DNA of 64,000 bases from Fidelibacterota bacterium (lineage in GTDB: Bacteria > Fidelibacterota > Marinisomatia > Marinisomatales > JACNKV01). The stretch covers positions 7,886 to 71,885 of the forward strand of contig JACNKV010000115.1 in NCBI GenBank assembly GCA_014381855.1, read 5' to 3'. Position numbers and translations under genes: made by a program. The notes below the pieces were generated by a model, which saw only the letters and a program-made list of their open reading frames with translations, was not told the origin of the DNA and ran no database searches. Of the stretch, positions 230-49,971 are shown one piece after another (within the stretch, counting starts at the first letter, position 1; every line of letters begins with the position of its first letter).

Positions 230-2503
230 ATGTCAGAACAAAACTATTATCATTACATTGGAACATCACACCTTCGTTCAGATGCTAAGGAAAAAACCAC
301 CGGAGAGACAAAGTTTTTAACGGATATTCCTGACAAAGGAATGCTCCATGCGGCACCGGTATATTCTTCGATTCCATTTGGTGAGACAATATCAATTGAC
401 GTTTCAGTAGCTGAATCTGTGCAAGGCTATGTTGATTTTATTTCAGCAAAGGATATCCCAGGGGAAAACCAGATTGGCGTCATTTTTCAGGATCAGCCCC
501 TATTTGCGGATAAAATCGTTCGGTATGTCGGTGACAGTATCGGTTTGGTCGTTGCAGAAACGTCAGAAGCCGCTTATTATGCTGCCCGTTTAATAAAGAT
601 AAAATACGAAGAGCATACACCGCTATTATCTATCGATGAAAGCAGAGATGCAGAAAACAATTTCATCCACGAAACGAACCTTGCATGCAAACACCGTGTA
701 CGTAAAGGAAATATTGAAATAGGTTTTAATACTGCAGATAAAATCGTAGAAGCCTCGTTTAAAACACCTTTCCAAGAGCATTATTATCTTGAACCTCAGG
801 GATGTATTGTTACTCCCGGAAACAACAGTAATGTTGAAATTGTCGGAACGCTACAATGTCCATTTTATATTCAAAAATCGGTTGCCAAAGTTTTAGGAGT
901 GAATCTGAAGAATGTTTCCGTCGAACAAGCTCCGACCGGAGGAGGCTTTGGAGGAAAAGAGGATATCCCTTCAGAATTAGCAGCTAGAGTTGCTGTTGCG
1001 GCAGTAAAATTGGGACGTACCATAAAAATGGTGTATCGCCGAAAAGAAGATGTGCAATTAACATCTAAACGTCATCCGTTTCAAATGCACTATAAAGTCG
1101 GGGTAAAAAATGACGGAACCTTAGTTGCCGCGGATATTCTATTAGAAGAAAATGCGGGTGCTTATGCGACTTTGTCATCCGTCGTTTCATATCGTGCTTC
1201 CGCTCAGGCAATGGGACCTTATATCATTCCGAATATTCACGTTGATTCAAATTCATACTACACAAATTTACCTCCGACCGGTGCTTTCCGTGGATTCGGA
1301 TCTCCTCAAGCTGCATTCGGGCATGAACGAATGATGGACGTAATCGCAGCAGAACTGAACATGGACCCCGTTGAAATAAGACTAAAAAACATTCTGAAAC
1401 CCGGTGATGCTACCATGACCGATCAGTCCTTACCCATAAGTGTTGGTGCGGAAGAAACGATTCGTAAGGCGGTAAAATCATCCAACTGGAATCATAAAAA
1501 CATTGAAGACGGAAGATATCTCCATGGGATGGGGATAAGCACCATTCATTATGGTAATTGCCTTGGAGCTGCCGGTTGGCATATGGATGGTTCCGCTGCC
1601 CGTATTCAGATACAAAGAGATGGTAAAATTACTGTTGCTTTCGGTTTAGTGGAAATGGGGCAGGGAGCTTTAACAGTTGTGAAACAGATGACGGCTGAAG
1701 CACTTGGAATTTCACCGGAACGAATTACCGTATTACCGACTTCAACAGAATATGTTCCAGACAGCGGACCTGCAGTAGCATCTCGAAATGTCGTAATGAC
1801 TGGAAATGCAATTCGTGACGCGGCGAAAAAACTTCTTCCGATTCTGAAGGATGCTGTAGCGGAACTCATGGAATGTAAACCAAATGATGTCGAGCTGACA
1901 AATGATCGTGTATTCTGTAGAGCTAATAATTCAGAACTCACATTTGAAGAATTGACAAATTATCTCTATATCACAAATCGTAAGACGGAAGAACTTGGTT
2001 GGTGGCATGTCCGTGAGTTAGAGTATAACAAGGATACTGGCATCGGAGAAGCTTACTTTACGTATTCTTATGCAACACATATCGCCAAAGTACGTGTCGA
2101 CAAACTTACAGGATTGGTCCATACTGATAAAATATGGGCGGCACACGATATTGGTAAAGCCATAAATCCTGCCGGGTTGGAGGGACAAATTGAAGGAGGG
2201 ACGGCTCAAGGTGTCGGTTGGGTTACGACGGAGAATTTTATAACCGATCGTGGAATTGTGCAGACAGAAAATCTTTCGACCTATCTTTTGCCGACTGCAA
2301 CCGATGTCCCTGATGTCGAATCCATCATCGTTGAAGACCCGGAACCCGAAGGTCCATGGGGTGCAAAGGGAATTGGTGAACCGGCAGTTATCCCGACCGG
2401 AGCGGCAATTGCTAATGCCGTCAGTAACGCGTTAGGCGTTCAGATGAATGAAATTCCCTTAACCCCGGAAAAAGTATTAAACATAATAATGAAAAACAAA
2501 TGA
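230..2503 (+). CDS. xanthine dehydrogenase/aldehyde oxidase family molybdopterin-binding large subunit
   Basis: 757 aa with an N-terminal a/b-hammerhead-like region. Motifs APTGGGFGGKED, FRGFGSPQ and C-terminal GPWGAKGIGEP are typical of Mo-hydroxylase large subunits. ATGA overlap with the next gene. Confidence 0.9.
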   Translation: MSEQNYYHYIGTSHLRSDAKEKTTGETKFLTDIPDKGMLHAAPVYSSIPFGETISIDVSVAESVQGYVDFISAKDIPGENQIGVIFQDQPLFADKIVRYVGDSIGLVVAETSEAAYYAARLIKIKYEEHTPLLSIDESRDAENNFIHETNLACKHRVRKGNIEIGFNTADKIVEASFKTPFQEHYYLEPQGCIVTPGNNSNVEIVGTLQCPFYIQKSVAKVLGVNLKNVSVEQAPTGGGFGGKEDIPSELAARVAVAAVKLGRTIKMVYRRKEDVQLTSKRHPFQMHYKVGVKNDGTLVAADILLEENAGAYATLSSVVSYRASAQAMGPYIIPNIHVDSNSYYTNLPPTGAFRGFGSPQAAFGHERMMDVIAAELNMDPVEIRLKNILKPGDATMTDQSLPISVGAEETIRKAVKSSNWNHKNIEDGRYLHGMGISTIHYGNCLGAAGWHMDGSAARIQIQRDGKITVAFGLVEMGQGALTVVKQMTAEALGISPERITVLPTSTEYVPDSGPAVASRNVVMTGNAIRDAAKKLLPILKDAVAELMECKPNDVELTNDRVFCRANNSELTFEELTNYLYITNRKTEELGWWHVRELEYNKDTGIGEAYFTYSYATHIAKVRVDKLTGLVHTDKIWAAHDIGKAINPAGLEGQIEGGTAQGVGWVTTENFITDRGIVQTENLSTYLLPTATDVPDVESIIVEDPEPEGPWGAKGIGEPAVIPTGAAIANAVSNALGVQMNEIPLTPEKVLNIIMKNK

Positions 2504-3819
2504 AGACACTCTTAACAAATTGCAGAATTGTAAATCCCTTTAGTAGTCCCGAATTCATTGAAAATGGATATATTTTGATTGAAAATGGTATTGTAGAAGT
2601 AATTAAAGAAGGAATCCCTAATTTTACTGTAGATGAAAAAATCGATTTAAACGGTAAAACCGTCCTTCCCGGAATGATAAATGCACATGCGCATTTATAT
2701 TCCACTTTAGCTATGGGAATGCCATTTCCGAAGGGAAATCCAACAAATTTCACCGAGATCTTGGAACAGGTCTGGTGGATTTTGGATCGAGCTTTGGATC
2801 GGGAAAGTACAAAAGCCTCCTTCGAAGCCGGTTTGCTTGACCACCTGCGTCATGGAGTAACAACAGTTATCGACCATCATTCCAGCCAAAACTATATTGA
2901 CGGTTCGTTGAATTTGTTAGCCGAAACAGCTAAGCAATTTGGCATGAATATCTCTGGTGCATTTGAAATGACCGACCGAAATGGCAAGCAAACCTTTCAA
3001 AACAGTTTGGACGAGAATATCACATTTCATCGTGAATTTATCGAGTATAAATCTGTACGTCCTCTCATAGGATTACACGCATCATTCACGCTTTCGGATG
3101 AATCGCTTAAAAGCATTTCTGACAGACTGAAGTCGGAACGTGATTGGGGAATCCATATTCATACTGCCGAAGACAAAGCTGACAGAACAGATTCAAAATC
3201 ACGCGGGTATAATTCAGTCATTCACCGTTTAGATTCATTTGATCTTTTGAATGAAAATAGTTTGGTGATTCATGGTGTGCATTTTGAGCCTGGTGATGTT
3301 GACATTCTGAAACGAACAGGAGCAATGCTAGTGCATAATCCGTCTTCAAATGCGAATAATCGCGTGGGGATGACCCCAACAGCGCTTATCGAAGAAATGC
3401 AAGCCGGATTAGGTACCGACGGAATGCAGGGAAATATGTTGGAAGAAGCAAAAATAGGAACATTGATTCGAAGTAGCCACCTAGTTGGTGGAGAACCCAG
3501 CGTAAATTATGCCGAAATGCTCTTTAAGCACAATGCGGATATCGCCACGAAATTATTTGGGCGCAAGATAGGAAAACTCGATCAGGGCTATGCTGCTGAC
3601 TTGGCGGTATTTGACTATAATCCACGAACTGAATTCAATGCGGATAATTGGATTGGACATGCGTTATTTGGAATGGAAGCACCAATTGATGTGATGACGA
3701 ATGGAATATTTAGAGTCAGAAATAATTCACTTATCGATCTTGATGAAAAATCGATTTTGACTAATGCGAATAAACAGGCAAATATCTTGTGGAATAATAT
3801 GGAAGAAACAGATGGTTAA
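2500..3819 (+). CDS. ssnA: putative aminohydrolase SsnA (amidohydrolase superfamily)
   Basis: 439 aa. Metal-binding NAHAHLYS, then QVWWILDRALDRES, VIDHHSSQNYIDGSL and EMTDRNG blocks that parallel E. coli SsnA (442 aa) as I recall it. Confidence 0.75.
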   Translation: MKTLLTNCRIVNPFSSPEFIENGYILIENGIVEVIKEGIPNFTVDEKIDLNGKTVLPGMINAHAHLYSTLAMGMPFPKGNPTNFTEILEQVWWILDRALDRESTKASFEAGLLDHLRHGVTTVIDHHSSQNYIDGSLNLLAETAKQFGMNISGAFEMTDRNGKQTFQNSLDENITFHREFIEYKSVRPLIGLHASFTLSDESLKSISDRLKSERDWGIHIHTAEDKADRTDSKSRGYNSVIHRLDSFDLLNENSLVIHGVHFEPGDVDILKRTGAMLVHNPSSNANNRVGMTPTALIEEMQAGLGTDGMQGNMLEEAKIGTLIRSSHLVGGEPSVNYAEMLFKHNADIATKLFGRKIGKLDQGYAADLAVFDYNPRTEFNADNWIGHALFGMEAPIDVMTNGIFRVRNNSLIDLDEKSILTNANKQANILWNNMEETDG

Positions 3820-3937
3820 GTGGAGTAAAAAAAGACAATGAACTCTCAATATTATTTGATAAATTTCCACGCTCTTTCTCGGGGCTTAATCAAGAACTGA
3901 GGGGCGTTCCAAAAGATCGAAAAGCGAGCACAATGTA

Positions 3938-3965
3938 TTGACGTGCTACAGCTACGTCATATATC
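3938..3965 (+). promoter_or_regulatory. candidate sigma70-like promoter (TTGACG-16 nt-TATATC) with an embedded inverted repeat TGACGT-N9-ACGTCA
   Basis: TTGACG at 3938-3943 and TATATC at 3960-3965. The inverted repeat at 3939-3959 fills the spacer. The AAGGAG RBS at 3989-3994 sits 7 nt before the ATG at 4002. It lies in the 182-bp gap that precedes the carbamoyltransferase genes. Confidence 0.3.
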
Positions 3966-4001
3966 AATAAATCTTCATTAACAAATATAAGGAGTAAAAC
4001 T

Positions 4002-4955
4002 ATGAGAAGTTTTGCAGGAAGAGATATACTCTCACTTAAGGACTTTGAACGAAATGAGTTTTTTAGAGTGTTCGATGTGGCCGATCGCCTAAGACACTTT
4101 GCCGAAGATCGAAAAAATACTGATTTGTTGGCAGGAAAAACACTTGTAACCGCATTTTATCAACCCAGCACACGCACACGCTTAGCACACGAAGCTGGCA
4201 TGCATCGCCTCGGCGGACATGTCACCGGTTTTTCCGATGCGAAAATGACTCGAGCCGGCGACTTTTATCAGGAGACAATTAAAGACACCGTCAAAATGTT
4301 GGAATTCTACGGTGACGTTATCGTTATGCGTCATTTCCAACAAGGTGCACCGCACGAAGCCGCTAAGTGGTCTTCTATTCCGATTATCAACGGTGGCGAT
4401 GGTTGGGGAGAACATCCGACACAAATTCTAACAGATCTTTATACTATTTACAAAGAAAAAGGACGTATTGACGGATTAAAATGGTTAGCCGTTGGTGATA
4501 TGAGAATGAGAACAATGCATTCATTGGCTCACGGTTTAACGCAATTTGATTGCCCGATTACGTTTGTTTCTCCACCTGATATGAGTATGACCGATGAATT
4601 CAAAAAGGATATTGAAAAATATAATCTAAACTACAAAGAAGCCGAGCATGTCGAAGAAGCGATCGCTGATGCTGATGTCATTTTAGTTGAACCAGTCGTT
4701 CAACCTGATTATACAAAAGCCAGAGATGAACGCTCCGGCGATGTTGGTTTGACTCCGTCAAATTATAAAATCACACGTGAGCTTCTTTCCACAAAAGCGA
4801 AATCTGACGCCATTCTGCTGCACTCACTTCCTCGCATGGATGAAATCCCTGCTGATGTGGATATCACACGCTGGTCACGCTACTGGCAGGAAGCTTTCAA
4901 CGGTGTCGTTATGCGTATGGCGCTCTTGGCATTAGTTCTTGGCACACAAGAGTAG
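4002..4955 (+). CDS. aspartate-carbamoyltransferase-like transcarbamylase with divergent second-substrate site
   Basis: 317 aa. It has the carbamoyl-phosphate motif PSTRTR, GEHPTQILTDL, and the C-terminal HSLPRMDEI that corresponds to PyrB HPLPRVDEI. The PyrB RVQKER region reads EPVVQPD. There is no pyrI neighbour. Confidence 0.7.
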   Translation: MRSFAGRDILSLKDFERNEFFRVFDVADRLRHFAEDRKNTDLLAGKTLVTAFYQPSTRTRLAHEAGMHRLGGHVTGFSDAKMTRAGDFYQETIKDTVKMLEFYGDVIVMRHFQQGAPHEAAKWSSIPIINGGDGWGEHPTQILTDLYTIYKEKGRIDGLKWLAVGDMRMRTMHSLAHGLTQFDCPITFVSPPDMSMTDEFKKDIEKYNLNYKEAEHVEEAIADADVILVEPVVQPDYTKARDERSGDVGLTPSNYKITRELLSTKAKSDAILLHSLPRMDEIPADVDITRWSRYWQEAFNGVVMRMALLALVLGTQE

Positions 4956-4966
4956 GAGGGAACATT

Positions 4967-5944
4967 ATGCAGACATATCTACGCGGTCGTGACATGATTA
5001 CGACCCAAGAATGGACACGTGAAGAAATTGATACTGTCATGGATGTCGCCATGGATTTAAAACGTAAACGCGCATTGGGTGAACCTCATGCGTATTTGCG
5101 TGATAAAGTCTTGGCGATGCTGTTTTTCTTCTCAAGCACACGTACTCGTGCGTCGTTTGAAGCCGGAATGGCTCAACTGGGCGGACATGCGATGTTCCTA
5201 GATAGCAAAACCACGCAGGTTTCTCACGGCGATACAGCAAAAGAGATTGGTGATATTCTAGGACGTTACAACGATGGATTAGCCATTCGTCAGGTGGATT
5301 GGGAACATGGGAATCAATATATCCGATGGGTTGCTGAAGCAAGCCGTACACCTGTTTTGAATATGCAGTGTGATGAGTATCATCCTCATCAGATTCTCGC
5401 GGACCTTCAGACAATCATAGAGAAAAAGGGCGATCCCCGAGGAAAAACTATCACTGTTAGCTGGGCATACGCTTCCAGCTATTCAAAACCGCAAAGTGTT
5501 CCGAACAGTCTAATCCTGCTCATGACACGCTACGGAATGAATGTACGTTTGGTTCATCCCCCGGAATTTAAGCTAAAATCAAAATTCATTGATCAAGCCA
5601 AGGAAAATGCCAAAAAACATCACGGTAGTTTTGTGATGATGGACGATTTTGAAGCAGGAGTCAAAGATACGGACATTTGGTATGCGAAAAGCTGGGGACC
5701 GATGCTCACAACGACTGATCCTGCAGAGGATAAGCGAATTACGGAAAAATACAGTGATTGGATCGCTGATGAACGTCGTTTAGCCATGGCAAAGCCTGAT
5801 GCAATCTACATGCACCCGTTACCTGCTGATCGCAATGTTGAAGTTACTGACGCCGTCCTCGACGGGCCAAATTCGGTTGTCTTTGATCAGGCAGAAAATC
5901 GTTTGCACGCTCAAAAAGCCGTCATGGCTTTGACAATGACCTAA
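4967..5944 (+). CDS. YgeW-like (knotted-type) carbamoyltransferase, short form
   Basis: 325 aa with motifs SSTRTRASFE, HPHQILADL, VSWAYASSYSKPQSVP, AKSWGP and YMHPLPADR. These resemble the YgeW blocks TWAYSPSYGKPLSVP, PKSWAP and YMHCLPAD that I recall. E. coli YgeW is longer at 396 aa. Confidence 0.6.
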   Translation: MQTYLRGRDMITTQEWTREEIDTVMDVAMDLKRKRALGEPHAYLRDKVLAMLFFFSSTRTRASFEAGMAQLGGHAMFLDSKTTQVSHGDTAKEIGDILGRYNDGLAIRQVDWEHGNQYIRWVAEASRTPVLNMQCDEYHPHQILADLQTIIEKKGDPRGKTITVSWAYASSYSKPQSVPNSLILLMTRYGMNVRLVHPPEFKLKSKFIDQAKENAKKHHGSFVMMDDFEAGVKDTDIWYAKSWGPMLTTTDPAEDKRITEKYSDWIADERRLAMAKPDAIYMHPLPADRNVEVTDAVLDGPNSVVFDQAENRLHAQKAVMALTMT

Positions 5945-5999
5945 TAATTTTAATCTGCCGTAGAAATACAGAGACTCTTAGGTTAAGAAGTATGGATTG

Positions 6000-6026
6000 G
6001 GTATAGGAGAATATTTCTCCTATACC
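6000..6026 (+). promoter_or_regulatory. perfect 12-bp stem / 3-nt loop hairpin between the carbamoyltransferase and carbamate kinase genes
   Basis: GGTATAGGAGAA-TAT-TTCTCCTATACC read directly from the sequence. It is not followed by a clear T-run (TGACCACTCTTTCTG), so it could be an attenuator, a processing site or a protein-binding palindrome rather than a canonical terminator. Confidence 0.3.
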
Positions 6027-6101
6027 TGACCACTCTTTCTGTGACCATATTATTTTTATAACCTTTCTCTGTATCTCCGCCGCTAAATAATTGGAGAATT
6101 T

Positions 6102-7049
6102 ATGAAAAAGAAATTAGCAGTGATTGCCATTGGTGGTAATTCACTTATTCACGACAAACAGCACCAGACGGTGCGTGACCAATACATTGCCGCTCATGAG
6201 ACTTCGGAACATATCGTTTCGATGATTCGTGACGGCTGGGATGTTGCAATATCCCACGGAAATGGTCCGCAAGTTGGATTCATTTTACGCCGTTCAGAAT
6301 TAGCCTCTCACGAGTTGCATGAAGTTCCGCTGGATGTATGCGGTGCCGATAGTCAAGGTGCGATCGGATATGCTCTTCAGCAGAATTTATATAACGAATT
6401 TAAACGTTTTGGCATGGAGAAATACGTCACTACGGTGGTGACTCAGGTAGAAGTATCCGCAAATGATCCATCTTTCAAAGCTCCGGCAAAACCCATTGGA
6501 TCTTTTATGGATGAATCAGAAGCATCCCGTCGACGCGATAAAGAAGGCTGGGATGTGAAAGAGGATGCAGGGCGCGGATGGCGCCGGGTTGTTGCCTCTC
6601 CTAAACCGATCCGTATTGTAGAAGAACCAGCTGTAAAACAATTGTTAGATGCTGGTGTTGTAGTAATTACAACAGGTGGTGGTGGAATTCCGGTGGTCGC
6701 AGATGAAAATGGGCACCTTAGCGGTGTTGCAGCAGTAATTGATAAGGATTTCGCTTCTTCACTCCTGGCAAGCAACTTAGGTGCTGAATTGTTTGTTATG
6801 AGTACCGCCGTTGAGAAAGTCGCTTTAAACTTTGGTAAACCTAACGAAAAATGGCTGGATAAAATAACCTTGCAGGAAGCAAAAGGTTATCTCGCGGAAG
6901 GAACACATTTTGCTGCCGGAAGCATGGCGCCAAAGGTTGAGGCTGCGATTCTTTTCTTAGAAAACGGCGGGAAAGAAGTTGTCATTACCAACCCTGAAAA
7001 TCTTGAAAAAGCATTGGATGGAAAAACCGGAACTCATATCGTCCATTAA
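6102..7049 (+). CDS. arcC: carbamate kinase
   Basis: 315 aa. N-terminal KKLAVIAIGGNSL, SHGNGPQVG and TTGGGGIPV are typical of ArcC/YqeA carbamate kinases. Confidence 0.9.
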   Translation: MKKKLAVIAIGGNSLIHDKQHQTVRDQYIAAHETSEHIVSMIRDGWDVAISHGNGPQVGFILRRSELASHELHEVPLDVCGADSQGAIGYALQQNLYNEFKRFGMEKYVTTVVTQVEVSANDPSFKAPAKPIGSFMDESEASRRRDKEGWDVKEDAGRGWRRVVASPKPIRIVEEPAVKQLLDAGVVVITTGGGGIPVVADENGHLSGVAAVIDKDFASSLLASNLGAELFVMSTAVEKVALNFGKPNEKWLDKITLQEAKGYLAEGTHFAAGSMAPKVEAAILFLENGGKEVVITNPENLEKALDGKTGTHIVH

Positions 7050-7083
7050 TTGATGTAATCTGGGAGAAACAAAGAGGTAAGAT

Positions 7084-8334
7084 ATGGAACATGTCATTGG
7101 ATTAAAGTGTATGGTTTGCGTAAAAGAGTATGATGTGAATGAGATCGACTATGTTTGTCCTGATCACGGCAATGAAGGAATTGTAGATGTTGTTTACGAT
7201 TATGACTACATCGGTAAACATTTTAATCGCGAAGATTTACAGAAGTCTACTGACTTTACAATTTGGCGTTATAAACCACTCTTACCAGTTGAACCTGATT
7301 CTGAAGTACCACCCCTAACTGTTGGCTGGACACCGCTATATAGAACTGATCGCTTAGCATCTTCACTGGGATTAAAGCATCTTTGGATAAAAGACGACGG
7401 TCGATTACCGACAGCCTCTTTCAAAGATAGAGCCAGTGCAATCGCCATTGTTAAAGCACGTGAAAAAGGTGCGGAAATTATCATGACGGCAAGTACCGGG
7501 AACGCCGCTGCAGCACTAAGCGGACTGTGCGCAAGTTTGGATCAAAAGAATGTGATATTTGTTCCGGAAAGTGCTCCAAAAGCGAAGATTGCTCAATTGC
7601 TTGTGTTTGGTGCAAAAGTCATGCTGGTAAAAGGATCCTATGATGATGCATTTGAACTTTGTCTGGAAGCAGAAAAAGAATACGGCTGGTATAATCGAAA
7701 CACCGGATATAATCCATACATGAGCGAAGGGAAGAAAACTGCCAGCTTCGAAATATGCGAACAGTTAAAGTGGAATGCTCCGGATGTCATGTTCGTAAGC
7801 GTTGGTGACGGCTGTATTATCGGTGGATTGCATAAAGGATTGAAAGATTTGATGGCACTTGGTTGGATTGACAAAATTCCCAGAATCATCGGAGTACAAT
7901 CTGCCGGGAGTGATTATATGTATCAAGCATGGAAGAATAATGAAGACGTTTTGACTAAACCTGCCATTGATGCACAAACTGCTGCGGATAGTATCAGTGC
8001 CGGTTTACCACGCGATCGGATTAAAGCCATGAAGGCTGTGAAAGAAACGGACGGTGCTTACATTAGCGTAACAGATGATGAAATCCTGAAAGCCATACCT
8101 ATGATGGCACGCGGCAGCGGAGTGTTTGGAGAACCTGCCGGAGCAGCTGCATTAGCAGGTTTGCTGAAGGCAATTGATGATAGGTTGGTAAATTCTGATG
8201 ACCGGATCGTGGTTCTGAATACCGGCAATGGACTGAAGGACGTTGTCGGTGCAATGAAGTCGGTGGAGCTTGTAGGAACATTTCCTACATACGTAAAGCC
8301 TGACATCGAAGATTTAAAACGAAAATTAGCTTAA
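7084..8334 (+). CDS. threonine-synthase-family PLP-dependent enzyme with N-terminal Cys/His zinc-ribbon
   Basis: 416 aa. C9-x2-C12...C25-x2-H28 at the N-terminus. PLP-lysine motif PTASFKDRAS followed by TASTGNAAAALS, typical of short-form ThrC-like fold-type-II enzymes. Confidence 0.7.
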   Translation: MEHVIGLKCMVCVKEYDVNEIDYVCPDHGNEGIVDVVYDYDYIGKHFNREDLQKSTDFTIWRYKPLLPVEPDSEVPPLTVGWTPLYRTDRLASSLGLKHLWIKDDGRLPTASFKDRASAIAIVKAREKGAEIIMTASTGNAAAALSGLCASLDQKNVIFVPESAPKAKIAQLLVFGAKVMLVKGSYDDAFELCLEAEKEYGWYNRNTGYNPYMSEGKKTASFEICEQLKWNAPDVMFVSVGDGCIIGGLHKGLKDLMALGWIDKIPRIIGVQSAGSDYMYQAWKNNEDVLTKPAIDAQTAADSISAGLPRDRIKAMKAVKETDGAYISVTDDEILKAIPMMARGSGVFGEPAGAAALAGLLKAIDDRLVNSDDRIVVLNTGNGLKDVVGAMKSVELVGTFPTYVKPDIEDLKRKLA

Positions 8335-8365
8335 ATACATAACGAAAAAATAAAGGAAATATCAT

Positions 8366-9832
8366 ATGATAGATTTAACTATTAATTCTGCTGCTTTAGA
8401 AAGAGCGATAGAGAAAGCGCGAAAACAGAATATTATTATTCCGACATTTCAGCAGCAGATTAATCCGGAGTTAGTCCCGGATAACATCAAGAACCAATTA
8501 ATGAATGTTGGACTTTGGGATGTGAATCCGCTCAACCTGTTTCGTATTACTTGGAAAAATGAACCGAAATCACATGGTGGTGTATACGGGGACGTGAATT
8601 TCATCGAATTTCCGAAAGCGATTACCGGAGTTGATGCAAAAATTGTTGCACCGGTTGGAAAATGGTTCCCGACGGGCGCACACAAAGTAGGTGCTGCCTT
8701 CGGCTGTTTGGTTCCGCGTTTAGTTACCGGGCAATTTGATCCATCCACGCAGAAAGCTGTATGGCCATCTACCGGAAATTACTGTCGCGGAGGAGCCTAT
8801 GATTCCACATTACTTGGGTGTGAATCCATCGCAATTTTACCGGAGGAAATGAGTAAAGAACGCTTCGATTGGTTAGCCTCTGTTGCCGGAGAAACCATCA
8901 AGACGCCTGGAAGCGAAAGCAATGTGAAAGAAATATTTGATAAGTGCTGGGAACTTCGGAAATCAGGTGAAGACTTAGTGATTTTCAACCAGTTTGACGA
9001 ATTTGGAAATTATCTCTGGCATTATAATGTTACCGGTCGTGCCTTAGCTGATATTCTTGAAAAAGTCATGGGACCAAATGATACATTCCGAGGTTCTGTG
9101 TACACAACCGGATCGGCCGGAACGATTGGAAGTGGCGACTATCTTAAAAACCTCTTCCCGACCAGTAAAATTGCTGCCAGTGAAGCATTACAGTGTCCGA
9201 CATTACTAAACAATGGTTTTGGCGCACATCGAATCGAAGGCATTGGAGATAAACACATCCCATGGATTCATAATGTGAAAAATACGGACATGGTTATGGC
9301 GATTGATGATGAATCACCAATGTCTGTTATTCGTTTATTCAACGAACCTGCCGGTAAAAAGTATTTAGCATCTCAAGGCGTTTCTGAACAGTTAATTGAT
9401 GCTTTACCGTTGTTAGGTATCTCCGGTGTTGCGAACCTCTTGAGCGCAATAAAATTTGCGAAATACTATGAACTTGGCGAAGGCGATGTTGTTGCAACCA
9501 TTTTGACAGATTCCATGGAAATGTATCAGAGTCGCTTACAAGAGCTTACAGAAGAACACGGAGATTTTACCGATTTAGATGCTGCAGCTTCCTATCACAA
9601 ACATCTTGTAGGAACTACAGTGGATTATGTTGAGGAGCTCACGTATGAAACACGAAAGCGTGTCCATAATTTGAAGTACTATACTTGGGTTGAGCAGCAG
9701 GGGAAAACCTTTGATGAAATCCAATCTCAATGGTATGACGATGATTATTGGTCCAATATGCACAACCAAATTGATAATATGGATGAACTCATCGATGATT
9801 TTAACGCCCGCACCGGGTTATTGAAATCATAG
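8366..9832 (+). CDS. fold-type-II (tryptophan synthase beta-like) PLP-dependent enzyme, unknown specificity
   Basis: 488 aa. Candidate PLP lysine in PTGAHKVGAA (K107) and a phosphate-loop-like YTTGSAGTIGSG. It has extra N-terminal (~90 aa) and C-terminal (~100 aa) regions compared with cysteine-synthase-size enzymes. Confidence 0.5.
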   Translation: MIDLTINSAALERAIEKARKQNIIIPTFQQQINPELVPDNIKNQLMNVGLWDVNPLNLFRITWKNEPKSHGGVYGDVNFIEFPKAITGVDAKIVAPVGKWFPTGAHKVGAAFGCLVPRLVTGQFDPSTQKAVWPSTGNYCRGGAYDSTLLGCESIAILPEEMSKERFDWLASVAGETIKTPGSESNVKEIFDKCWELRKSGEDLVIFNQFDEFGNYLWHYNVTGRALADILEKVMGPNDTFRGSVYTTGSAGTIGSGDYLKNLFPTSKIAASEALQCPTLLNNGFGAHRIEGIGDKHIPWIHNVKNTDMVMAIDDESPMSVIRLFNEPAGKKYLASQGVSEQLIDALPLLGISGVANLLSAIKFAKYYELGEGDVVATILTDSMEMYQSRLQELTEEHGDFTDLDAAASYHKHLVGTTVDYVEELTYETRKRVHNLKYYTWVEQQGKTFDEIQSQWYDDDYWSNMHNQIDNMDELIDDFNARTGLLKS

Positions 9833-9892
9833 TGTAATTGACTGTCATTCATGTGTAATTTTGAGGGAAGATAAGCATAAAGAGCAGCTAAA

Positions 9893-10375
9893 ATGCTCCA
9901 TATTGAAAATCCTGAATATTATACAATAACACTAACCGTAAACGGGAAGGAGCTGGAAAAATCCGTTCCTTCCCATATGCGACTACTTGATCTATTACGT
10001 AATGAACTGCATTTTACCGGCGCCAAAGAAGTCTGTTCAGAAGGAGAATGTGGTGCGTGTACTATTTTCATGGATAGCAAAACCGTTAATTCCTGTCTTA
10101 TACTTGCTGTCGAAGCCGATAAATCCGAAATAATCACCATTGAAGGCTTCCCAAAAGAAAATAGTCTTACCGAGCTGCAACAAGAGTTTATAGATCACCA
10201 CTCTGTTCAATGTGGGTATTGCATCCCGGGTATGGTGTTATCCGGTGAGCAGATTCTAAAGGATCATGAAAATCCTGACAGAATGGAAATCAAGAAGGAA
10301 TTATCAGGAAATATTTGCCGATGTACAGGCTATCATAAAATTGTGGATGCAATTGAACATGCAGGACACAAATAA
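9893..10375 (+). CDS. (2Fe-2S)-binding small subunit of a molybdenum hydroxylase (CoxS/XdhC/PucE-like)
   Basis: 160 aa. Both cluster motifs are intact: C48-x4-C53-x2-C56-x11-C68, then QCGYCIPGM and CRCTGY. Confidence 0.9.
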   Translation: MLHIENPEYYTITLTVNGKELEKSVPSHMRLLDLLRNELHFTGAKEVCSEGECGACTIFMDSKTVNSCLILAVEADKSEIITIEGFPKENSLTELQQEFIDHHSVQCGYCIPGMVLSGEQILKDHENPDRMEIKKELSGNICRCTGYHKIVDAIEHAGHK

Positions 10376-10463
10376 CACAAATGAATCGAATGGATAAAAT
10401 TAAAAATAGAATTTATTTTCGTTTTCCTACGTCATTATTTGTGGAATTTGTGTAAACAATCAC

Positions 10464-11294
10464 ATGAAATATTATACACCAAGCTCATTATCAGAACTAA
10501 ACGATTTATTTTTACAAACTAACAATTCGAAAATAACTATTTTATCAGGCGGTACCGATATCTTACCCCGATGGGAAGAGGGAATAACACTTCCGAAACA
10601 TTTAATCGATTTAAAAAAGATTAATTCTATATCAGGTATTGTTGAGCACGATAATAAAATTATTATCGGTGCTTTAACAACTGTTCAGGATATTTATAAA
10701 TCTGAACTAATTAAAACGAAATACACGGCACTTCACCAAGCCGCTTCTCAGTTTGCCGGTGTTCAGATTCGGCACAGAGCTACCATTGGCGGGAATATCT
10801 GCAACGCATCCCCGGCCGGAGATTTGTTACCCGGGCTTTATGTTCACAACGCCATGATTGAATTAACTGGGCCTAATGGCACAAGAAAATTACCGATAAA
10901 TAAATGTATCACCGGAGTTGGGAAAACGACTCTTAACAATAATGAAATCGTTTCAGCGGTCATTTTAGAGAAAACAGAAGAACTATCAGTATTCTATAAA
11001 TTGGGTTTAAGACAGTCTATGGCGATATCCGTTGTGAATTTTGCTATTGCCTACCGACAAACCTCACCGAATCTTTTTGATTTACAATCAATTGCAGCAG
11101 GAGCTGTGGCTCCAACTGTAGTTTATCTTAAAGAGTTTACTAAAGCAGTGAATGAGGGTCTTCCTTTAGAAAAAGCTATAAGTTTAATAGAACATGATAT
11201 TTCGCCCATAGATGATATCCGAGCTTCTGCTGATTACAGGAAAACAGTTTTGAAAAATTTACTTACCCATAAGTTGAAAGAATTATATGTCTGA
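10464..11294 (+). CDS. FAD-binding subunit of a molybdenum hydroxylase (CoxM/XdhB/PucC-like)
   Basis: 276 aa. SGGTDILP and ATIGGNICNASPAGD motifs, with the C-terminal DIRASADYR typical of the CO-dehydrogenase flavoprotein domain. It overlaps ygfK by 8 nt. Confidence 0.85.
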   Translation: MKYYTPSSLSELNDLFLQTNNSKITILSGGTDILPRWEEGITLPKHLIDLKKINSISGIVEHDNKIIIGALTTVQDIYKSELIKTKYTALHQAASQFAGVQIRHRATIGGNICNASPAGDLLPGLYVHNAMIELTGPNGTRKLPINKCITGVGKTTLNNNEIVSAVILEKTEELSVFYKLGLRQSMAISVVNFAIAYRQTSPNLFDLQSIAAGAVAPTVVYLKEFTKAVNEGLPLEKAISLIEHDISPIDDIRASADYRKTVLKNLLTHKLKELYV

Positions 11295-14200
11295 TAAGTT
11301 ATACCCAATGGAGTTAACCCACTTATTGAAGTGGATTCTTGAAGAAGAGAAACATGGAAGTATCTTTGGAGTCACGAAGGAACTGTTCTTCAATCCAAGT
11401 GAGCAAGATGTCTTTCGTATGAAACGTTACGGCCAGCTGATGGAAACTCCCATCGGTGTTGCTGCCGGACCTCATACCCAGATGGCTCAAAATATCATTT
11501 TAGCGTGGTTAATGGGCGCTAGGTACATTGAGCTTAAAACTATACAGACGCTGGATGAGCTGAAAGTCTCTAAACCCTGTATTGATATGCAGGATGAAGG
11601 CTACAATTGTGAATGGTCACAGGAACTTAAATTAAATCAGTCTTTCTCTGAATATTTAAATGCCTGGATTATCATTCATATCCTCAAAGATAAATTCGGA
11701 TGGGGGTATGATAAAGACTTGGGCGGGATATTTAATATGTCTGCCGGATATAATCTAGTCGGAATTAAAAAACCAAATGTTCAACAGTTCTTAGATTTGA
11801 TGGAGGATTGTCAGCCTAATCTTGATGATAGACTAAATAGCATCGAGCATATTTATCCGAATATAAAGAATCTAAGTATCCCGGCAAAATTATCGGATAA
11901 TCTCACGCTTTCAACCATGCACGGCTGTCCGCCGGATGAAATAGAATCGATCGGAAAATACCTGATAGAAGAACGTAAATATCACATGACTGTTAAACTG
12001 AATCCGACGCTTTTAGGACCTGATAAATTGAGAGAAATTCTTAACAATCGCCTTGGATTTAAAGAAGTCACTGTTCCTGATGAAGCGTTTAGTCATGACT
12101 TAAAATATTATGATGCTTTAAAACTGATCAAAAGTTTACAATCATCTGCGGAAAATAATGGTGTAGACTTTGGCTTAAAATTGACAAATACTCTTGAGGT
12201 AGAAAATCATAAACCAATTTTTCCGTCCAATGAAAAAATGATGTATATGAGCGGACGAGCACTACATCCGATTAGTATCCATGTCGCAGAGAAACTGCAA
12301 ACCGAATTCAATGGAAATCTGGATATTTCATTTTCCGCGGGAATGGATGCGTTCAATGTCGCTGATGTATTGGCAGCGAACATAAAACCGATTACCGTCT
12401 GTACTGACATCTTAAAACCAGGTGGATACACACGGTTAGCACAATATCTGTCCGAGATAAAAAAACAGTTTGCAGATACAAATGCATCCTCAATTGATGA
12501 ATTTATTTTGTCAAAAGACAACGCTGCAACTGATTTAAAAACAGCCGGATTAAACAATCTGAAATATTTTGCTGAGTCTGTTCTGAATCATGCCGCTTAT
12601 CACAAAGATATTAAGCATTTTGAATCCATTAAGACTCCGAGACCTCTTACTCGATATGACTGTGTTAAAGCGCCGTGCACTGAATCATGTGCCACAGATC
12701 AGGAAATTCCTGAGTATTTGCATCAGGTTGCAAACGGAAATTTCGACAAAGCTTATGAAACTATTTTAAGAACAAATGCAATGCCGGGCGTCACTGGTTA
12801 TGTCTGTGATCATCTTTGTCAAACCAAATGCACACGAAACAATTTAGACAGCACGTTATTAATACGTGAAATCAAAAGGTTTGCCACTGAAAATAATTCC
12901 GTTAAAACGCTAGTTTCTAAACCCTCCAACGGATTAAAAACCGCTGTCATCGGAGCTGGTCCTTCAGGGTTAACCTGTGCTTACTATCTAGCGCTTGAAG
13001 GATTTGAAGTTGATATTTACGAAGCTAAACCTTTTGCCGGAGGAATGGTATCTGATGCAATTCCCGGTTTTCGGCTTACCAACGATTCGATAAAGAATGA
13101 TATCGAATTAGTGAAATCTGTCGGGGTCAAATTCCATTTCAATTCAAGTATTGATAAAAATAGATTTAACGAATTACGATCAAATTATGATTATGTTTAT
13201 CTTGGAGCCGGTGCTCAAGATAACAAGAGATTGAATATCCAAGGAGAAGAATCATCAAACGTCATTGAACCTCTGACATTTTTATCTGATGTACGACAAG
13301 GAAACGTTAAGGAATTGGGTGAGCGTGTTGCTGTGATTGGGGGAGGAAACACAGCAATGGATGCCGCACGGACCTCACGCCGGTTAGGATCAGATGTAAC
13401 AATACTTTACCGCAGAACGATGAAAGAGATGCCGGCTGACATGGAAGAAATTGTAGCCGCGCTGGAGGAAGGTATCTATCTGCAGGAACTTGTTGCTCCT
13501 GAAAAGATTGCTGACGGTGGTGACGGACCTGCGATATTAACATGTTTCAAAATGGAATTGGGGAAACCGGATGAGAGCGGACGGGAACGCCCGATAAAAA
13601 TTGACGGTTCAGAGTTTGAACTTGCCTTCGATAAAATTATCCCGGCAGTCGGACAAGATATCGCATTGGACTATGTAACTTGGCAAGAATTGGTCCCTGA
13701 TAATGTGACCGGAGAAACAAAGCTGAAGAATGTTTTTGCCGGTGGGGATATTGTCCGCGGAGCTTCTTCCGTAATCAATGCCGTGGGAGATGGGCGTAAA
13801 GCCGCTGATAATATAATCCGTGCCGCTAAGTTGGATAATCATCATGCGCCAGATTCCTCATTGCGATTTGAAAAATTCGAATATCAAAAGAAATTAGCAT
13901 TAAGAGAATATGGAATTACCACACCGCATTTATCCCCGGATGAACGAATTAATTTTAATTTAGTAACAAGGACGCTTGCTAAAGAAGAAGCCATGGCAGA
14001 AGCCTCAAGGTGTCTCCAATGTGATGATGTTTGTGATGTTTGTGTAAGTGTATGTCCTAACTTAGCGAATATGTCATATATAGCCAGACGAAGAACCTAT
14101 CCTGTTTATCAATTATTGGCTAAAGATGATGGCGTGAATATTATACAAATTGATACATTCACAATCTCCCAAGAACCACAAATTATCAATATCGGTGACT

Positions 14201-14559
14201 TTTGTAATGAATGCGGAAATTGTACAACTTTCTGTCCGACGGCGGGTGATCCGTATAAAACGAAGCCCAAATTCTTTCTGAATGGAGAAACCTTTGATGC
14301 AGAAGAAAATGGATATTGGATGGATGGAAATACACTTTTCTCAAAAATGGATGGCATACAATCATCACTCAATTTAACAGAAGGGAATTACAGGTATAAA
14401 TCAGATATTATTAATATTAAAATGGATTCATCTAATTATGAAATAATTTCAGCTCAATTCTTAAATGGAAAAAGTGAAATGCAATCATCCGATATAACAG
14501 AAATGATTGTATTATTTGAAAACATGAAAGATTATCCATTATTTAATACGGACAAATAA
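11287..14559 (+). CDS. ygfK: YgfK-like multidomain Fe-S flavoprotein oxidoreductase (annotated elsewhere as putative selenate reductase subunit YgfK)
   Basis: 1090 aa. The N-terminus PMELTHLLKWILEEEKHGSIFGV parallels E. coli YgfK. Domain order is a DPD-like barrel region, a GltD-like Cys cluster, the dinucleotide folds VIGAGPSGLTCAYYL and VIGGGNTAMDAAR, then C-terminal ferredoxin motifs CLQCDDVCDVCVSVCP and CNECGNCTTFCP. Confidence 0.85.
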   Translation: MSDKLYPMELTHLLKWILEEEKHGSIFGVTKELFFNPSEQDVFRMKRYGQLMETPIGVAAGPHTQMAQNIILAWLMGARYIELKTIQTLDELKVSKPCIDMQDEGYNCEWSQELKLNQSFSEYLNAWIIIHILKDKFGWGYDKDLGGIFNMSAGYNLVGIKKPNVQQFLDLMEDCQPNLDDRLNSIEHIYPNIKNLSIPAKLSDNLTLSTMHGCPPDEIESIGKYLIEERKYHMTVKLNPTLLGPDKLREILNNRLGFKEVTVPDEAFSHDLKYYDALKLIKSLQSSAENNGVDFGLKLTNTLEVENHKPIFPSNEKMMYMSGRALHPISIHVAEKLQTEFNGNLDISFSAGMDAFNVADVLAANIKPITVCTDILKPGGYTRLAQYLSEIKKQFADTNASSIDEFILSKDNAATDLKTAGLNNLKYFAESVLNHAAYHKDIKHFESIKTPRPLTRYDCVKAPCTESCATDQEIPEYLHQVANGNFDKAYETILRTNAMPGVTGYVCDHLCQTKCTRNNLDSTLLIREIKRFATENNSVKTLVSKPSNGLKTAVIGAGPSGLTCAYYLALEGFEVDIYEAKPFAGGMVSDAIPGFRLTNDSIKNDIELVKSVGVKFHFNSSIDKNRFNELRSNYDYVYLGAGAQDNKRLNIQGEESSNVIEPLTFLSDVRQGNVKELGERVAVIGGGNTAMDAARTSRRLGSDVTILYRRTMKEMPADMEEIVAALEEGIYLQELVAPEKIADGGDGPAILTCFKMELGKPDESGRERPIKIDGSEFELAFDKIIPAVGQDIALDYVTWQELVPDNVTGETKLKNVFAGGDIVRGASSVINAVGDGRKAADNIIRAAKLDNHHAPDSSLRFEKFEYQKKLALREYGITTPHLSPDERINFNLVTRTLAKEEAMAEASRCLQCDDVCDVCVSVCPNLANMSYIARRRTYPVYQLLAKDDGVNIIQIDTFTISQEPQIINIGDFCNECGNCTTFCPTAGDPYKTKPKFFLNGETFDAEENGYWMDGNTLFSKMDGIQSSLNLTEGNYRYKSDIINIKMDSSNYEIISAQFLNGKSEMQSSDITEMIVLFENMKDYPLFNTDK

Positions 14560-15965: not shown

Positions 15966-16094
15966 TATCTGCAAATTGGAAAGAATAATTTAGGCTTAGT
16001 AAACAATTTTGAAAATAACCATAATTAGGATGGTATAAATATGCACTTACAAAAAATAATCTTCGTGTTACTTTGCAAACTTGGTGGCTGTTAG

Positions 16095-16859
16095 ATGTGG
16101 AATTCAATAAATTCGGTCGTTAAACCAAAAACATTAACCGAAGCATATTCCTTGGTTGACGGAAAGCATGTTGTACTTTTTGGAGGTGGGAGTTATTTAG
16201 TCTCAGAAAAGGATGAAACTATACATACATTGGTTGATATTAATAGTTTAGTTAATAATACGATCAAAGCTGATGTTGAAGGTGTCATCATAGGAGGAGG
16301 CGCAACACTGCAAGCCTTTATAAATACAGTGACCACTGTCAATCCTGATTGTCGGTTAATTGACGGATGCAGATATGCCTGTCCGTCTAAGAATATCCGT
16401 AACCAACGGACGTTCGGCGGAGAACTCGGGAAAGGTCGTTGTGATTCAGATATATTAGTATTTTTAAATGCCGTAAATGCCGATATAACAGTTGTTGCGG
16501 AAAGCAAAAAAACAGAAAGCATTCGTAATTGGGACGGAAGAGGAATTGTAACACAGATCGAATATATTCCAAACAATATTGAAGGGGTGGAACTAATGAG
16601 GTCTGCAAGAATTCCTTCTGCGCCGTCAGTCGTTAGTGTTTGTGCAATTAAAAAGAAGGATTATTTTGATATCAGTATCGGCGGTAAATGCTCAGAAATT
16701 CAAACTTTTTCTGTCCCGGAGGAAAAATGGAATAATACTGAAATAAAAACGATAAGTTCAAAAGTAGTAAGATGTTTTTCTGATGACCAATATGGTTCGC
16801 TTGATTACAAGCATATTCTCATTGAAACGTTGATTAATAGATCAGGGAGTACCCTATGA
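16095..16859 (+). CDS. ygfM: YgfM-like FAD-binding subunit
   Basis: 254 aa (E. coli YgfM is 259 aa). LFGGGSYL and NQRTFGGELG motifs of the FAD_binding_5 fold. It sits directly upstream of the XdhD-type genes. Confidence 0.65.
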   Translation: MWNSINSVVKPKTLTEAYSLVDGKHVVLFGGGSYLVSEKDETIHTLVDINSLVNNTIKADVEGVIIGGGATLQAFINTVTTVNPDCRLIDGCRYACPSKNIRNQRTFGGELGKGRCDSDILVFLNAVNADITVVAESKKTESIRNWDGRGIVTQIEYIPNNIEGVELMRSARIPSAPSVVSVCAIKKKDYFDISIGGKCSEIQTFSVPEEKWNNTEIKTISSKVVRCFSDDQYGSLDYKHILIETLINRSGSTL

Positions 16860-20129: not shown

Positions 20130-20230
20130 TATTCGTTCAATATATTTCAGCATATTTAAAGTCTATTTGCCTATTACGGACATTGGTATCTGTCCGTAAT
20201 ATAGAGAGCTATGGTGTCTGTATTAATAAA

Positions 20231-49953: not shown

Positions 49954-49971
49954 GAATGAGCGTGATAGTTG

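Follow-up and report, generated by a model that had tools for sequence, protein, structure and literature searches.

A conserved carbamoyltransferase pair and carbamate kinase in a variant reductive uric-acid operon of a Fidelibacterota bacterium, with a predicted second phosphorolytic step

Locus and genes

A 64,000-nucleotide stretch of contig JACNKV010000115.1 from a Fidelibacterota bacterium (GenBank assembly GCA_014381855.1, positions 7,886 to 71,885; hereafter the window) carries two adjacent carbamoyltransferase genes followed by a carbamate kinase gene. Here, we report an analysis of these genes, referred to as CT1, CT2 and CK, of the operon around them and of related loci in other genomes. 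The three are co-directional open reading frames on the + strand (4002-4955, 4967-5944 and 6102-7049; 317, 325 and 315 aa) within a single-strand run of 19 kb (230 to 19602). CT1 starts with ATG, 7 nt downstream of an AAGGAG ribosome-binding site, and is separated from CT2 by an 11-nt spacer. Both transferases carry the Pfam domains OTCace_N and OTCace (E values of 1e-25 to 1e-46). An earlier description of this DNA, made from the letters without database searches (the sequence-only reading), had called these genes and quoted motifs from them; every gene and motif was recovered.

The 182-nt gap 5' of CT1 contains a perfect palindrome, TGACGT-N9-ACGTCA (3939-3959; 0.06 expected by chance), which overlaps a promoter-like pair, TTGACG...TATATC; a copy with one mismatch lies within CT1 (4313-4333). 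The upstream palindrome has no counterpart in any related locus, and Rfam, promoter and terminator scans around the genes gave nothing significant.

The genes are best viewed against the reductive (2,8-dioxopurine) uric-acid pathway, which was established in gut bacteria in 2025 (Liu et al., bioRxiv 10.1101/2025.04.24.650524; Li et al., PMC12507026). There, XdhD reduces urate, YgfK dearomatises the product, and SsnA and HyuA open both rings to give 2,3-diureidopropionate. YgeW phosphorolyses one ureido group, YqeA turns the resulting carbamoyl phosphate into ATP, YgeY hydrolyses the second ureido group and YgeX converts 2,3-diaminopropionate to pyruvate (bioRxiv 10.1101/2025.04.24.650524; PMC12507026).

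Carbamoyltransferase CT1

CT1 resembles aspartate carbamoyltransferase (ATCase). Its best solved relative is the Pyrococcus abyssi enzyme (E 1.6e-68), and the AlphaFold2 model of CT1 (predicted local distance difference test [pLDDT] score, 84; predicted template-modelling score, 0.88) matched that structure (PDB 1ml4) with a template-modelling (TM) score of 0.85 in Foldseek. The protein contains the strings PSTRTR, GEHPTQ, HSLPRMDEI, ILVEPVVQPDY and TRAGDFYQETI. The carbamoyl-phosphate site is intact, with SxRT (as STRTR), HPxQ (as HPTQ) and Arg105 (in MRH) all present. With E. coli pyrB as the numbering reference, the PyrB residues kept are Ser52-Thr53-Arg54-Thr55, Arg105, His134, Gln137, Arg167 and Leu267.

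The second-substrate site differs. Thr228, Arg229, Gln231 and Arg234 of PyrB correspond to Glu230, Pro231, Val233 and Asp236 of CT1, so that EPVVQPD aligns to TRxQxER and the RxQxER motif of PyrB is lost. In the 80s loop, Ser80 is replaced by Arg84, Lys83 by Phe88 (with Asp87 inserted in front of it) and Lys84 by Tyr89, and Pro266 is replaced by Ser275, which turns HPLP into HSLP. The same replacements were obtained with HMMER against P. abyssi ATCase, with MAFFT and 96 diverse relatives, and with profile-profile alignment (hhalign) against canonical ATCases. In ATCase, Lys84, Arg229, Gln231 and Arg234 hold the beta-carboxylate of aspartate (PMC4581275). The altered aspartate site noted in the sequence-only reading is borne out by these three alignments; a fourth, considered below, differs. 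The replacement residues are invariant throughout the CT1 family, as are the residues that bind carbamoyl phosphate and both substrate loops.

Among curated hidden Markov models, TIGR00670 scored CT1 above its cut-off (257 bits against 237); NF002032 (227 against 263) and the other ATCase models did not. Passing TIGR00670 explains why every named public record lists CT1 as an aspartate carbamoyltransferase. A record 100% identical to CT1 is labelled Candidatus Marinimicrobia (Neomarinimicrobiota), with which the type IX secretion genes described below agree. In a neighbour-joining tree, CT1 grouped with other RxQ-less ATCase-like proteins, apart from the canonical ATCases. An exhaustive search of 50%-identity representatives recovered full-length members of the CT1 family at 70 to 72% identity, followed by a gap down to relatives at 49% or less. 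The latter are other RxQ-less ATCase-like proteins; canonical ATCases stand at 36 to 43%.

RxQ-less ATCase paralogues were named pseudo-ATCases in 2013 (Barba et al., PMC4016543). Like them, CT1 is annotated as ATCase, has STRT and HPTQ intact, has lost RxQ, reads H(S/T)LP and lies in a purine-catabolic context with a carbamate kinase. At positions 229 to 231, CT1 has PVV, against AIA/AIS/SIA, GX[SC] or VXP in the subgroups described. By comparison with these published signatures, HSLP agrees with subgroups 2 and 3 and the 229-231 positions do not. Features of its own are the 80s loop (TRAGD-FYQE), EPVVQPDYT and a 240s region about 7 residues longer than that of ATCases, where the pLDDT of the model falls to about 58 to 60 (residues 230 to 250). 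By its motifs, we class CT1 as a pseudo-ATCase as Barba et al. define the term, in a signature subgroup absent from their list. In Nocardioides JS614, the subgroup 2 pseudo-ATCase is a neighbour of xdhABC, hyuA and a ygeW homologue, and the YgeW-paired subgroup had no function assigned to it (PMC4016543); the pairing of the two transferases is therefore not unprecedented. A tblastn search of plasmids with CT1, seeking a pseudo-ATCase paired with YgeW, returned canonical pyrB genes only.

Carbamoyltransferase CT2 and the carbamate kinase

CT2 contains the strings SWAYASSYSKPQSVP, KSWGP and HPLPADR. It scored below the cut-offs of all the curated transferase models: ornithine carbamoyltransferase (OTCase; 267 against 306 and 251 against 281), N-acetylornithine carbamoyltransferase (AOTCase; 260 against 288), PTCase (222 against 500) and YgeW (171 against 453 and 164 against 500). 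Public records annotate it as ornithine or N-acetylornithine carbamoyltransferase. The DxxxSMG motif of OTCase aligns to KSWGPML, as the sequence-only reading had noted of KSWGP, and the HCLP of OTCase is HPLP. With both motifs lost and the scores under the OTCase cut-offs, CT2 is non-canonical and very unlikely to be an ordinary OTCase, which had been the second way in which that reading might fail.

Identity to E. coli YgeW is 32.7%. CT2 is 71 aa shorter (325 against 396 aa; about 70 had been estimated); the missing parts are 14 residues at the N terminus, 11 in the 120s loop, 16 in the 240s loop and the C-terminal helices. Of the five distinctive residues proposed for the second substrate of YgeW, the equivalents of Q160, S200, K203 and K270 are conserved in CT2 and its family, and D124 has no clear alignment; the proposed second-substrate list of YgeW also includes L331 of the shared HxLP motif. 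The features by which a YgeW-type transferase (YTCase) would be recognised are thus divided. Extra terminal helices, an extended 240s loop, HCLP and scores above the curated cut-offs are all lacking; an adjoining carbamate kinase and a uricolytic cluster are both present.

The C-terminal domain of CT2 finds Xanthomonas campestris AOTCase (PDB 3kzc) as its best PDB match, the best match otherwise being P. furiosus OTCase. CT2 shares with AOTCase the motif YAKSWG, identical around the second-substrate residue Lys252, a proline-rich loop (SSYSKPQSVP, which aligns to the loops of both YgeW and AOTCase) and the ENRLH motif; it differs in its score, in HPLP against HCLP and in its context, which is not one of arginine biosynthesis. 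The 120s loop is 4 residues longer than in P. furiosus OTCase and 11 shorter than in YgeW. The AlphaFold2 model (pLDDT 87) gave TM scores of 0.89 to OTCase and 0.85 to AOTCase. The proline-rich loop and the conserved lysine at the start of the 240s loop are features of the knotted carbamoyltransferases (AOTCase, SOTCase and YTCase). Its motifs place CT2 as a trimmed enzyme of the AOTCase/YgeW class.

The gene that follows encodes a carbamate kinase (carbamoyl phosphate + ADP to ATP), as had been read from the sequence: it passed NF009007 (408 against 266) and TIGR00746 (376 against 358) and is 52% identical to E. coli YqeA. A carbamoyltransferase directly upstream of a carbamate kinase, within an Xdh-YgfK-SsnA cluster, is also the arrangement of E. 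coli YgeW-YqeA. CT2 shares with YgeW the four residues and the proline-rich loop named above and differs in length, in HPLP against HCLP and in its low identity and score. The window differs from the E. coli cluster in the additional ATCase-like transferase, in lacking HyuA, YgeY and YgeX, and in having two other pyridoxal-5'-phosphate (PLP) enzymes in place of YgeX.

The surrounding operon

Two genes precede CT1 in the run. The first encodes the molybdenum (Mo) subunit of a xanthine-dehydrogenase-family enzyme (Xdh set 1; 230-2503, +), for which the best NCBIfam models were pucD (502 bits) and XdhA (478 bits), both under cut-off, with 27 to 30% identity to E. coli XdhD and XdhA. The second (2500-3819, +) encodes an SsnA-type amidohydrolase, the ring-opening step of the reductive urate pathway (NF005540, 420 bits, marginally short of its cut-off, 444; 36% identical to the E. 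coli enzyme).

Downstream of CK are the two PLP enzymes. One is a ThrC-like enzyme of fold type II (7084-8334, +; PALP, 254 bits; NF006050, 306 against 303) whose best PDB matches are threonine synthases and which is a candidate replacement for YgeX. It has an N-terminal CxxC...CPxH zinc ribbon and is not a YgeX-type lyase. The other is a long CysK/TrpB-like enzyme (8366-9832, +; PALP, 42 bits; only distant cysteine-synthase matches) of 488 aa, which carries the lysine motif TGAHK, as in TrpB, and is much extended at its termini; it is not a YgeX-type lyase either.

The 2Fe-2S subunit (9893-10375, +) and the FAD-binding subunit (10464-11294, +) of Xdh set 1 come next, so that the Mo subunit is split from its own partners by the block SsnA-CT1-CT2-CK-PLP-PLP. 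Both were called as open reading frames; in related loci, homologues of the former adjoin an Xdh Mo subunit and those of the latter are XdhB-type. They are followed by a YgfK-type flavin/Fe-S reductase, the 2,8-dioxopurine reductase (11287-14559, +; TIGR03315, 928 against 835; 37% identical to E. coli YgfK across 1069 aa), and by an 8-oxoguanine-deaminase-type amidohydrolase (14559-15965, +; NF006055, 629 against 532) whose start is the last base of the YgfK stop codon. SsnA occupies the same position in E. coli. The run ends with a second Xdh set (16095-19602, +; FAD subunit 16095-16859, 2Fe-2S subunit 16856-17317, Mo subunit 17245-19602), assigned by Pfam and by an XdhA-type score of 723 bits, which is under cut-off. 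Its Mo subunit is 37% and 34% identical to E. coli XdhD and XdhA, a better match than that of set 1, which makes set 2 the likelier enzyme for the step from urate to 2,8-dioxopurine.

An XdhD-type dehydrogenase, a YgfK-type reductase and a marginally scoring SsnA are thus found together. A tblastn search of the 64 kb with E. coli HyuA, YgeY and YgeX found no HyuA and no YgeY; the YgeX query matched only the ThrC-like gene, and that weakly (24.7% identical across 174 aa). The window therefore carries a variant reductive uric-acid pathway, in which Xdh, YgfK and SsnA are present and HyuA, YgeY and YgeX are absent from the window. There are no arg genes near CT1 and CT2. The observation that no pyrI or other pyrimidine gene lies nearby was borne out by tblastn with E. 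coli PyrI, which found none, and the window holds no other pyr gene.

Beyond the run, a phosphoribosyltransferase, an alpha/beta hydrolase and two tandem glyceraldehyde-3-phosphate dehydrogenase paralogues (343 and 333 aa) follow Xdh set 2 directly (19650-23321). Components of type IX secretion lie within 44252-53312, among them a 922-aa protein with a Por secretion tail (47185-49953) and a PorV-like gene (49972-51330); a fused DctQ-DctM TRAP transporter (51510-53312) comes after them.

Conservation of the module

A scan of one genome per species recovered a close CT1 relative in at least 585 genomes, spanning Chloroflexota, Marinimicrobia, KSB1, Zixibacteria and Acidimicrobiia. Synteny was counted in the best 80 of these (L001-L080), picked by CT1 similarity; most belong to Chloroflexota (Anaerolineae), and Marinimicrobia, KSB1 and Eisenbacteria are also represented. 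Of 71 informative loci, 69 have CT2 at most 2.5 kb downstream of CT1; the carbamate kinase occurs in 65 of 70. Other neighbours are a GntR/UTRA regulator (70/80 loci), 8-oxoguanine deaminase (40/80), the ThrC-like PLP enzyme (37/80, by tblastn), adenine deaminase (35/80), a Bmp-type nucleoside ABC transporter (28/80) and the CysK-like PLP enzyme (26/80, and further downstream in extended type-A operons). Rarer are YgeY (17/80), FolD (10/80), Xdh (7/80), SsnA (5/80) and HyuA (2/80). CT1-CT2-CK is a fixed module in at least 585 species of several phyla, usually accompanied by the ThrC-like and CysK/TrpB-like PLP enzymes.

Extended with metagenome contigs, the commonest Chloroflexota operon reads [FolD]-8-oxoGD-Ade-GntR-[YgeY]-CT1-CT2-CK-ABC transporter-XdhB-Xdh-ThrC-like-...-CysK-like, where 8-oxoGD and Ade denote 8-oxoguanine deaminase and adenine deaminase, both of which pass the equivalog cut-offs for those functions. 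The former stands two or three genes 5' of CT1 in Chloroflexota, beside the latter. L008 and L039 have a true SsnA next to the module (511 and 515 bits against a cut-off of 444), and L008 also has a selenium-dependent xanthine dehydrogenase (926 against 830). HyuA is nearby in L001 and L061 and in the metagenome locus L157 only.

Li et al. noted an F420-type variant of the pathway for Chloroflexota, the lower half of which was not examined there (PMC12507026). Two loci match it through their F420 genes. In L170 (Acidimicrobiia), the order is Xdh, SsnA-like, F420-dependent LLM reductase, CT1, CT2, CK, PLP, PLP, and in L172 it is amidohydrolase, CT1, CT2, CK, Xdh, CofG/CofH, LLM reductase. F420-related genes found with the module comprise FO synthase (CofG/CofH), LLM-class oxidoreductases and an F420-type NADP oxidoreductase (L172:15857-19416; L170:1457-2464; L008:14747-15475), and in several genomes they stand in for the YgfK reductase of the window.

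Mean pairwise identity across the loci was 87.7% for CT1 (a value somewhat inflated because the loci were chosen by CT1 similarity), 78.6% for CT2, 70% for the CysK-like enzyme, 66.4% for CK and 60% for the ThrC-like enzyme. CT1 remains 84 to 89% identical between Marinimicrobia and Chloroflexota. Extra protein contacts or horizontal transfer are possible causes of its slow evolution.

In 13 of the 80 loci, a gene for a four-helix-bundle protein of about 125 to 140 aa ("23S rRNA intervening sequence protein" family) lies between CT1 and CT2 (e.g., L028:10998-11366, L042:11036-11404; also L171:9393-9773). In the cultured chloroflexote Ardenticatena maritima (GCA_001306175.1, L081), CT2 (78% identical) precedes the kinase, CT1 is absent, and ThrC-like and distant CysK-like genes lie 6 to 9 kb downstream; the CT2-CK pair can thus stand by itself, like YgeW-YqeA. 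The loci that bear the names Anaerolinea thermophila and Caldilinea aerophila come from metagenome-assembled genomes.

Relatives of CT1 in actinobacteria

The nearest outgroup of CT1 is actinobacterial and shares the signatures TRAGD(F/Y)..E, DxRM-RTM, EPVVQPDYT and HSLPR. SbnA and SbnB, the family names being those of NCBIfam, jointly make L-2,3-diaminopropionate. In Streptomyces massasporeus and S. griseoflavus, a CT1-type gene lies between a non-ribosomal peptide synthetase (NRPS) and SbnA (374 against 350), with SbnB (398 against 327) a few kb off. The Actinoplanes protein P0487 (L167) is 74% identical to CT1 and branches inside the CT1 clade; its gene is 1.8 to 5 kb from a ThrC-like PLP gene (L167:2859-4052), SbnB (386 against 327) and SbnA (366 against 350). 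The CT1-type genes of Actinoplanes L167, of Streptomyces and of L169 occur without CT2 or the kinase.

Diaminopropionate is the backbone that is left after decarbamoylation in the uric-acid pathway, so that these loci offer a pointer to the substrate of CT1. On the strength of three loci, the SbnA and SbnB neighbours provide independent evidence that the CT1 subfamily handles diaminopropionate. The same compound was on the list of acceptors put forward from the sequence, and the contexts of the CT1 relatives favour it among them.

A carbamoyltransferase acting on this acceptor is already known: L-2,3-diaminopropionate transcarbamylase (DPTCase) of viomycin- and zwittermicin-type pathways (Shi et al. 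2015, PMC4581275) uses 2,3-diaminopropionate, and the relatives of CT1 likewise stand beside SbnA and SbnB in NRPS clusters. DPTCase is of the OTCase branch and reads HDLP and (T/S)RWQTTG, whereas CT1 is of the ATCase branch and reads HSLP and EPVVQPDYT; the DPTCase motifs are absent from CT2 too (HPLP, KSWGPML). In the operon of the window, CT1 would run phosphorolytically, probably on the alpha-N-carbamoyl isomer. A carbamoyltransferase of a sister clade in Streptomyces sp. (L166:9042-10954) stands beside a DcsG-like ATP-grasp protein (D-cycloserine-type), an aminotransferase, TauD and stand-alone NRPS domains, which suggests another ureido-amino-acid natural-product pathway.

Proposed pathway and alternatives

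The sequence-only reading proposed that both transferases are probably catabolic. We consider it highly probable that they are catabolic transferases of purine breakdown that feed the kinase. This ATP-yielding role is well founded because the operon is purine-catabolic, the kinase lies directly downstream and the gene order is conserved across the informative loci. The logic is that of the arginine deiminase pathway (catabolic OTCase with carbamate kinase), in which phosphorolysis of a ureido compound gives carbamoyl phosphate and then ATP at substrate level. Here the substrates are others, two transferases serve one kinase and neither has the ornithine-binding DxxxSMG.

In the scheme that we propose, CT1, CT2 and CK form the energy-conserving lower half of a variant of reductive uric-acid/purine degradation. 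The Xdh enzymes, YgfK and SsnA would reduce and open the purine to 2,3-diureidopropionate or to a cyclic compound that precedes it. CT2, as the counterpart of YgeW, would phosphorolyse one ureido group to carbamoyl phosphate; CT1, as an N-carbamoyl-2,3-diaminopropionate carbamoyltransferase, would phosphorolyse the remaining N-carbamoyl group of the mono-ureido-diaminopropionate to diaminopropionate and carbamoyl phosphate, a step that is hydrolytic in E. coli, through YgeY. The kinase would then make ATP from both carbamoyl phosphates, two per urate against one in E. coli, and the two PLP enzymes would dispose of 2,3-diaminopropionate. The gene identities, the lost motifs, the conserved synteny and the pathway context are observed; the two substrates, the regiochemistry, which transferase acts first and the yield of two ATP are what we infer. 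In this specific form, with CT2 at the YgeW step and CT1 at a second phosphorolysis, we hold the scheme to be evenly poised between right and wrong.

For CT2, the prediction draws on the four YgeW residues that it keeps. The statement that neither substrate is known has been overtaken to that extent, since YgeW was shown in 2025 to phosphorolyse 2,3-diureidopropionate (bioRxiv 10.1101/2025.04.24.650524; PMC12507026). For CT1, the likeliest substrate is 3-amino-2-ureidopropanoate, which is the mono-ureido intermediate according to Liu et al. (bioRxiv 10.1101/2025.04.24.650524) and amounts to carbamoyl-aspartate with -NH3+ replacing the beta -COO-. The loss of the beta-carboxylate ligands and the appearance of acidic residues near them (Asp87, Glu230, Asp236) would fit this compound, as would the retention of Arg167, the ligand of the alpha-carboxylate; the fit is one of alignment.

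Several points weigh against this scheme. The two studies of 2025 differ as to the ureido group that YgeW takes off (bioRxiv 10.1101/2025.04.24.650524; PMC12507026), and the pathway intermediates were reported in a 2025 study as (R), i.e., D-configured, whereas ATCases use L-aspartate. HyuA, which would be needed to form 2,3-diureidopropionate, is absent from the window and from 78 of the 80 related loci, and the true substrates could be cyclic intermediates. In many Chloroflexota operons, Xdh is accompanied by neither SsnA nor a reductase over a distance of about 20 kb, and the association with SbnA and SbnB is based on three loci. In CT1 itself, MAFFT with E. coli PyrB as the sole outgroup aligned TKARDER to TRVQKER after an 8-residue insertion, so that Lys239 and Arg241 could possibly stand in for Arg229 and Gln231, and the 80s and 240s loops of the AlphaFold2 model are uncertain. 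In 17 of the 80 loci, YgeY is found alongside CT1 and CT2; CT1 is thus not a strict replacement of YgeY, and the proposal that it is one is weakened.

The missing hydantoinase also lends itself to another explanation, in which CT1 and CT2 act on cyclic SsnA products (ureidomethyl-hydantoin, 5-ureido-dihydrouracil), on opposite stereoisomers or on parallel branches, and a PLP enzyme or an amidohydrolase opens the ring later. SsnA does yield two products in vitro (2025 reductive-pathway study), two PLP enzymes are conserved where one lyase would suffice, and the loci with YgeY have it alongside both transferases. We consider this unlikely, because CT2 retains the proposed substrate residues of YgeW, CT1 retains the alpha-carboxylate ligand Arg167 and relatives of CT1 adjoin genes that make free diaminopropionate. 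The hydantoinase, moreover, may be encoded elsewhere in the genome; L001, L061 and L157 have one close by.

Allantoate, too, bears two ureido groups, and a Rubrobacter pseudo-ATCase of subgroup 1 beside a carbamate kinase has been assigned ureidoglycine carbamoyltransferase (UGTCase) activity. On an allantoin-type route, CT1 would be such an enzyme (allantoate + Pi to ureidoglycine + carbamoyl phosphate) and CT2 an oxamate carbamoyltransferase (oxalurate + Pi to oxamate + carbamoyl phosphate), the latter a candidate of the sequence-only reading. The UGTCase motif H(T/S)LP, as given in a review, is shared by the HSLP of CT1; UGTCase retains the 80s-loop Ser and Lys, both of which CT1 has lost, and PVV at 229 to 231 fits none of the three published pseudo-ATCase subgroups. 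No allantoinase family recurs and no allantoin-branch gene turned up in the window or the loci examined, where uricase and 5-hydroxyisourate hydrolase were not specifically searched for; the neighbours are instead YgfK, SsnA, YgeY and F420 reductases. The oxamate transcarbamylase of E. coli is the unrelated AllFGH (PMC11326118), and the substrate residues of CT2 resemble those of YgeW. The oxamate candidate is accordingly not supported, and we regard the route as a whole as very improbable.

Less probable still is that CT1 serves chiefly as a structural or channelling partner, in a mixed assembly with CT2, the kinase or both that passes on labile carbamoyl phosphate. Its place as the slowest-evolving gene of the module, ahead of CT2 and the kinase, and the fixed gene order would agree with such a role. 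The carbamoyl-phosphate-binding residues and both substrate loops of CT1 are nevertheless invariant, as in an active enzyme, and the actinobacterial CT1-type genes named above, with L169, occur without CT2 or a kinase.

That the two are ordinary anabolic enzymes, ATCase and OTCase/AOTCase fed by a carbamate-kinase-type synthetase as in Pyrococcus, is barely credible: the TIGR00670 score and record names of CT1 and the best PDB matches of both (P. abyssi ATCase, P. furiosus OTCase) point that way, but CT1 lacks RxQxER, Lys84 and HPLP and fails NF002032, CT2 lacks DxxxSMG and HCLP and is under all the curated cut-offs, pyr and arg genes are absent nearby, and the operon is purine-catabolic, with a GntR/UTRA regulator and a nucleoside ABC transporter added in other genomes.

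Taking the scheme of two phosphorolyses together with the actinobacterial loci, a broader and more tentative reading, which we put forward without favouring it, is that CT1 represents a new specificity class on the ATCase branch (N-carbamoyl-2,3-diaminopropionate/2,3-diaminopropionate) that is used both ways. In environmental anaerobes it would be catabolic, as part of a lower pathway of five genes that is complete in itself (two transferases, a kinase and two PLP enzymes; without YgeY and YgeX and possibly without a hydantoinase) and yields two ATP. In actinomycetes it would be biosynthetic, supplying a ureido-diaminopropionate unit for non-ribosomal peptides.

Significance

Pseudo-ATCases were known, as was one case of their pairing with a YgeW homologue; the signature of CT1, as aligned here, lies outside the three published subgroups, and the literature searched does not describe the CT1-CT2-CK module, where it occurs or a form of the pathway with two transferases. 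The reductive pathway itself has been known only since 2025 and only from gut bacteria, and CT1-CT2-CK is a widespread, uncharacterised variant of its energy-yielding half. Should both ureido groups end up as carbamoyl phosphate, this part of the pathway would yield twice as much ATP. Since the records name CT1 as ATCase and CT2 as OTCase or AOTCase, metabolic reconstructions of these groups credit the wrong functions and miss a capacity for purine fermentation. In Streptomyces and Actinoplanes, the presence of the CT1 signature beside SbnA and SbnB predicts that natural-product biosynthesis includes a ureido-amino-acid step so far overlooked. The module overturns nothing established; it defines a misannotated energy-conserving variant of the pathway and predicts a new specificity on the ATCase branch.

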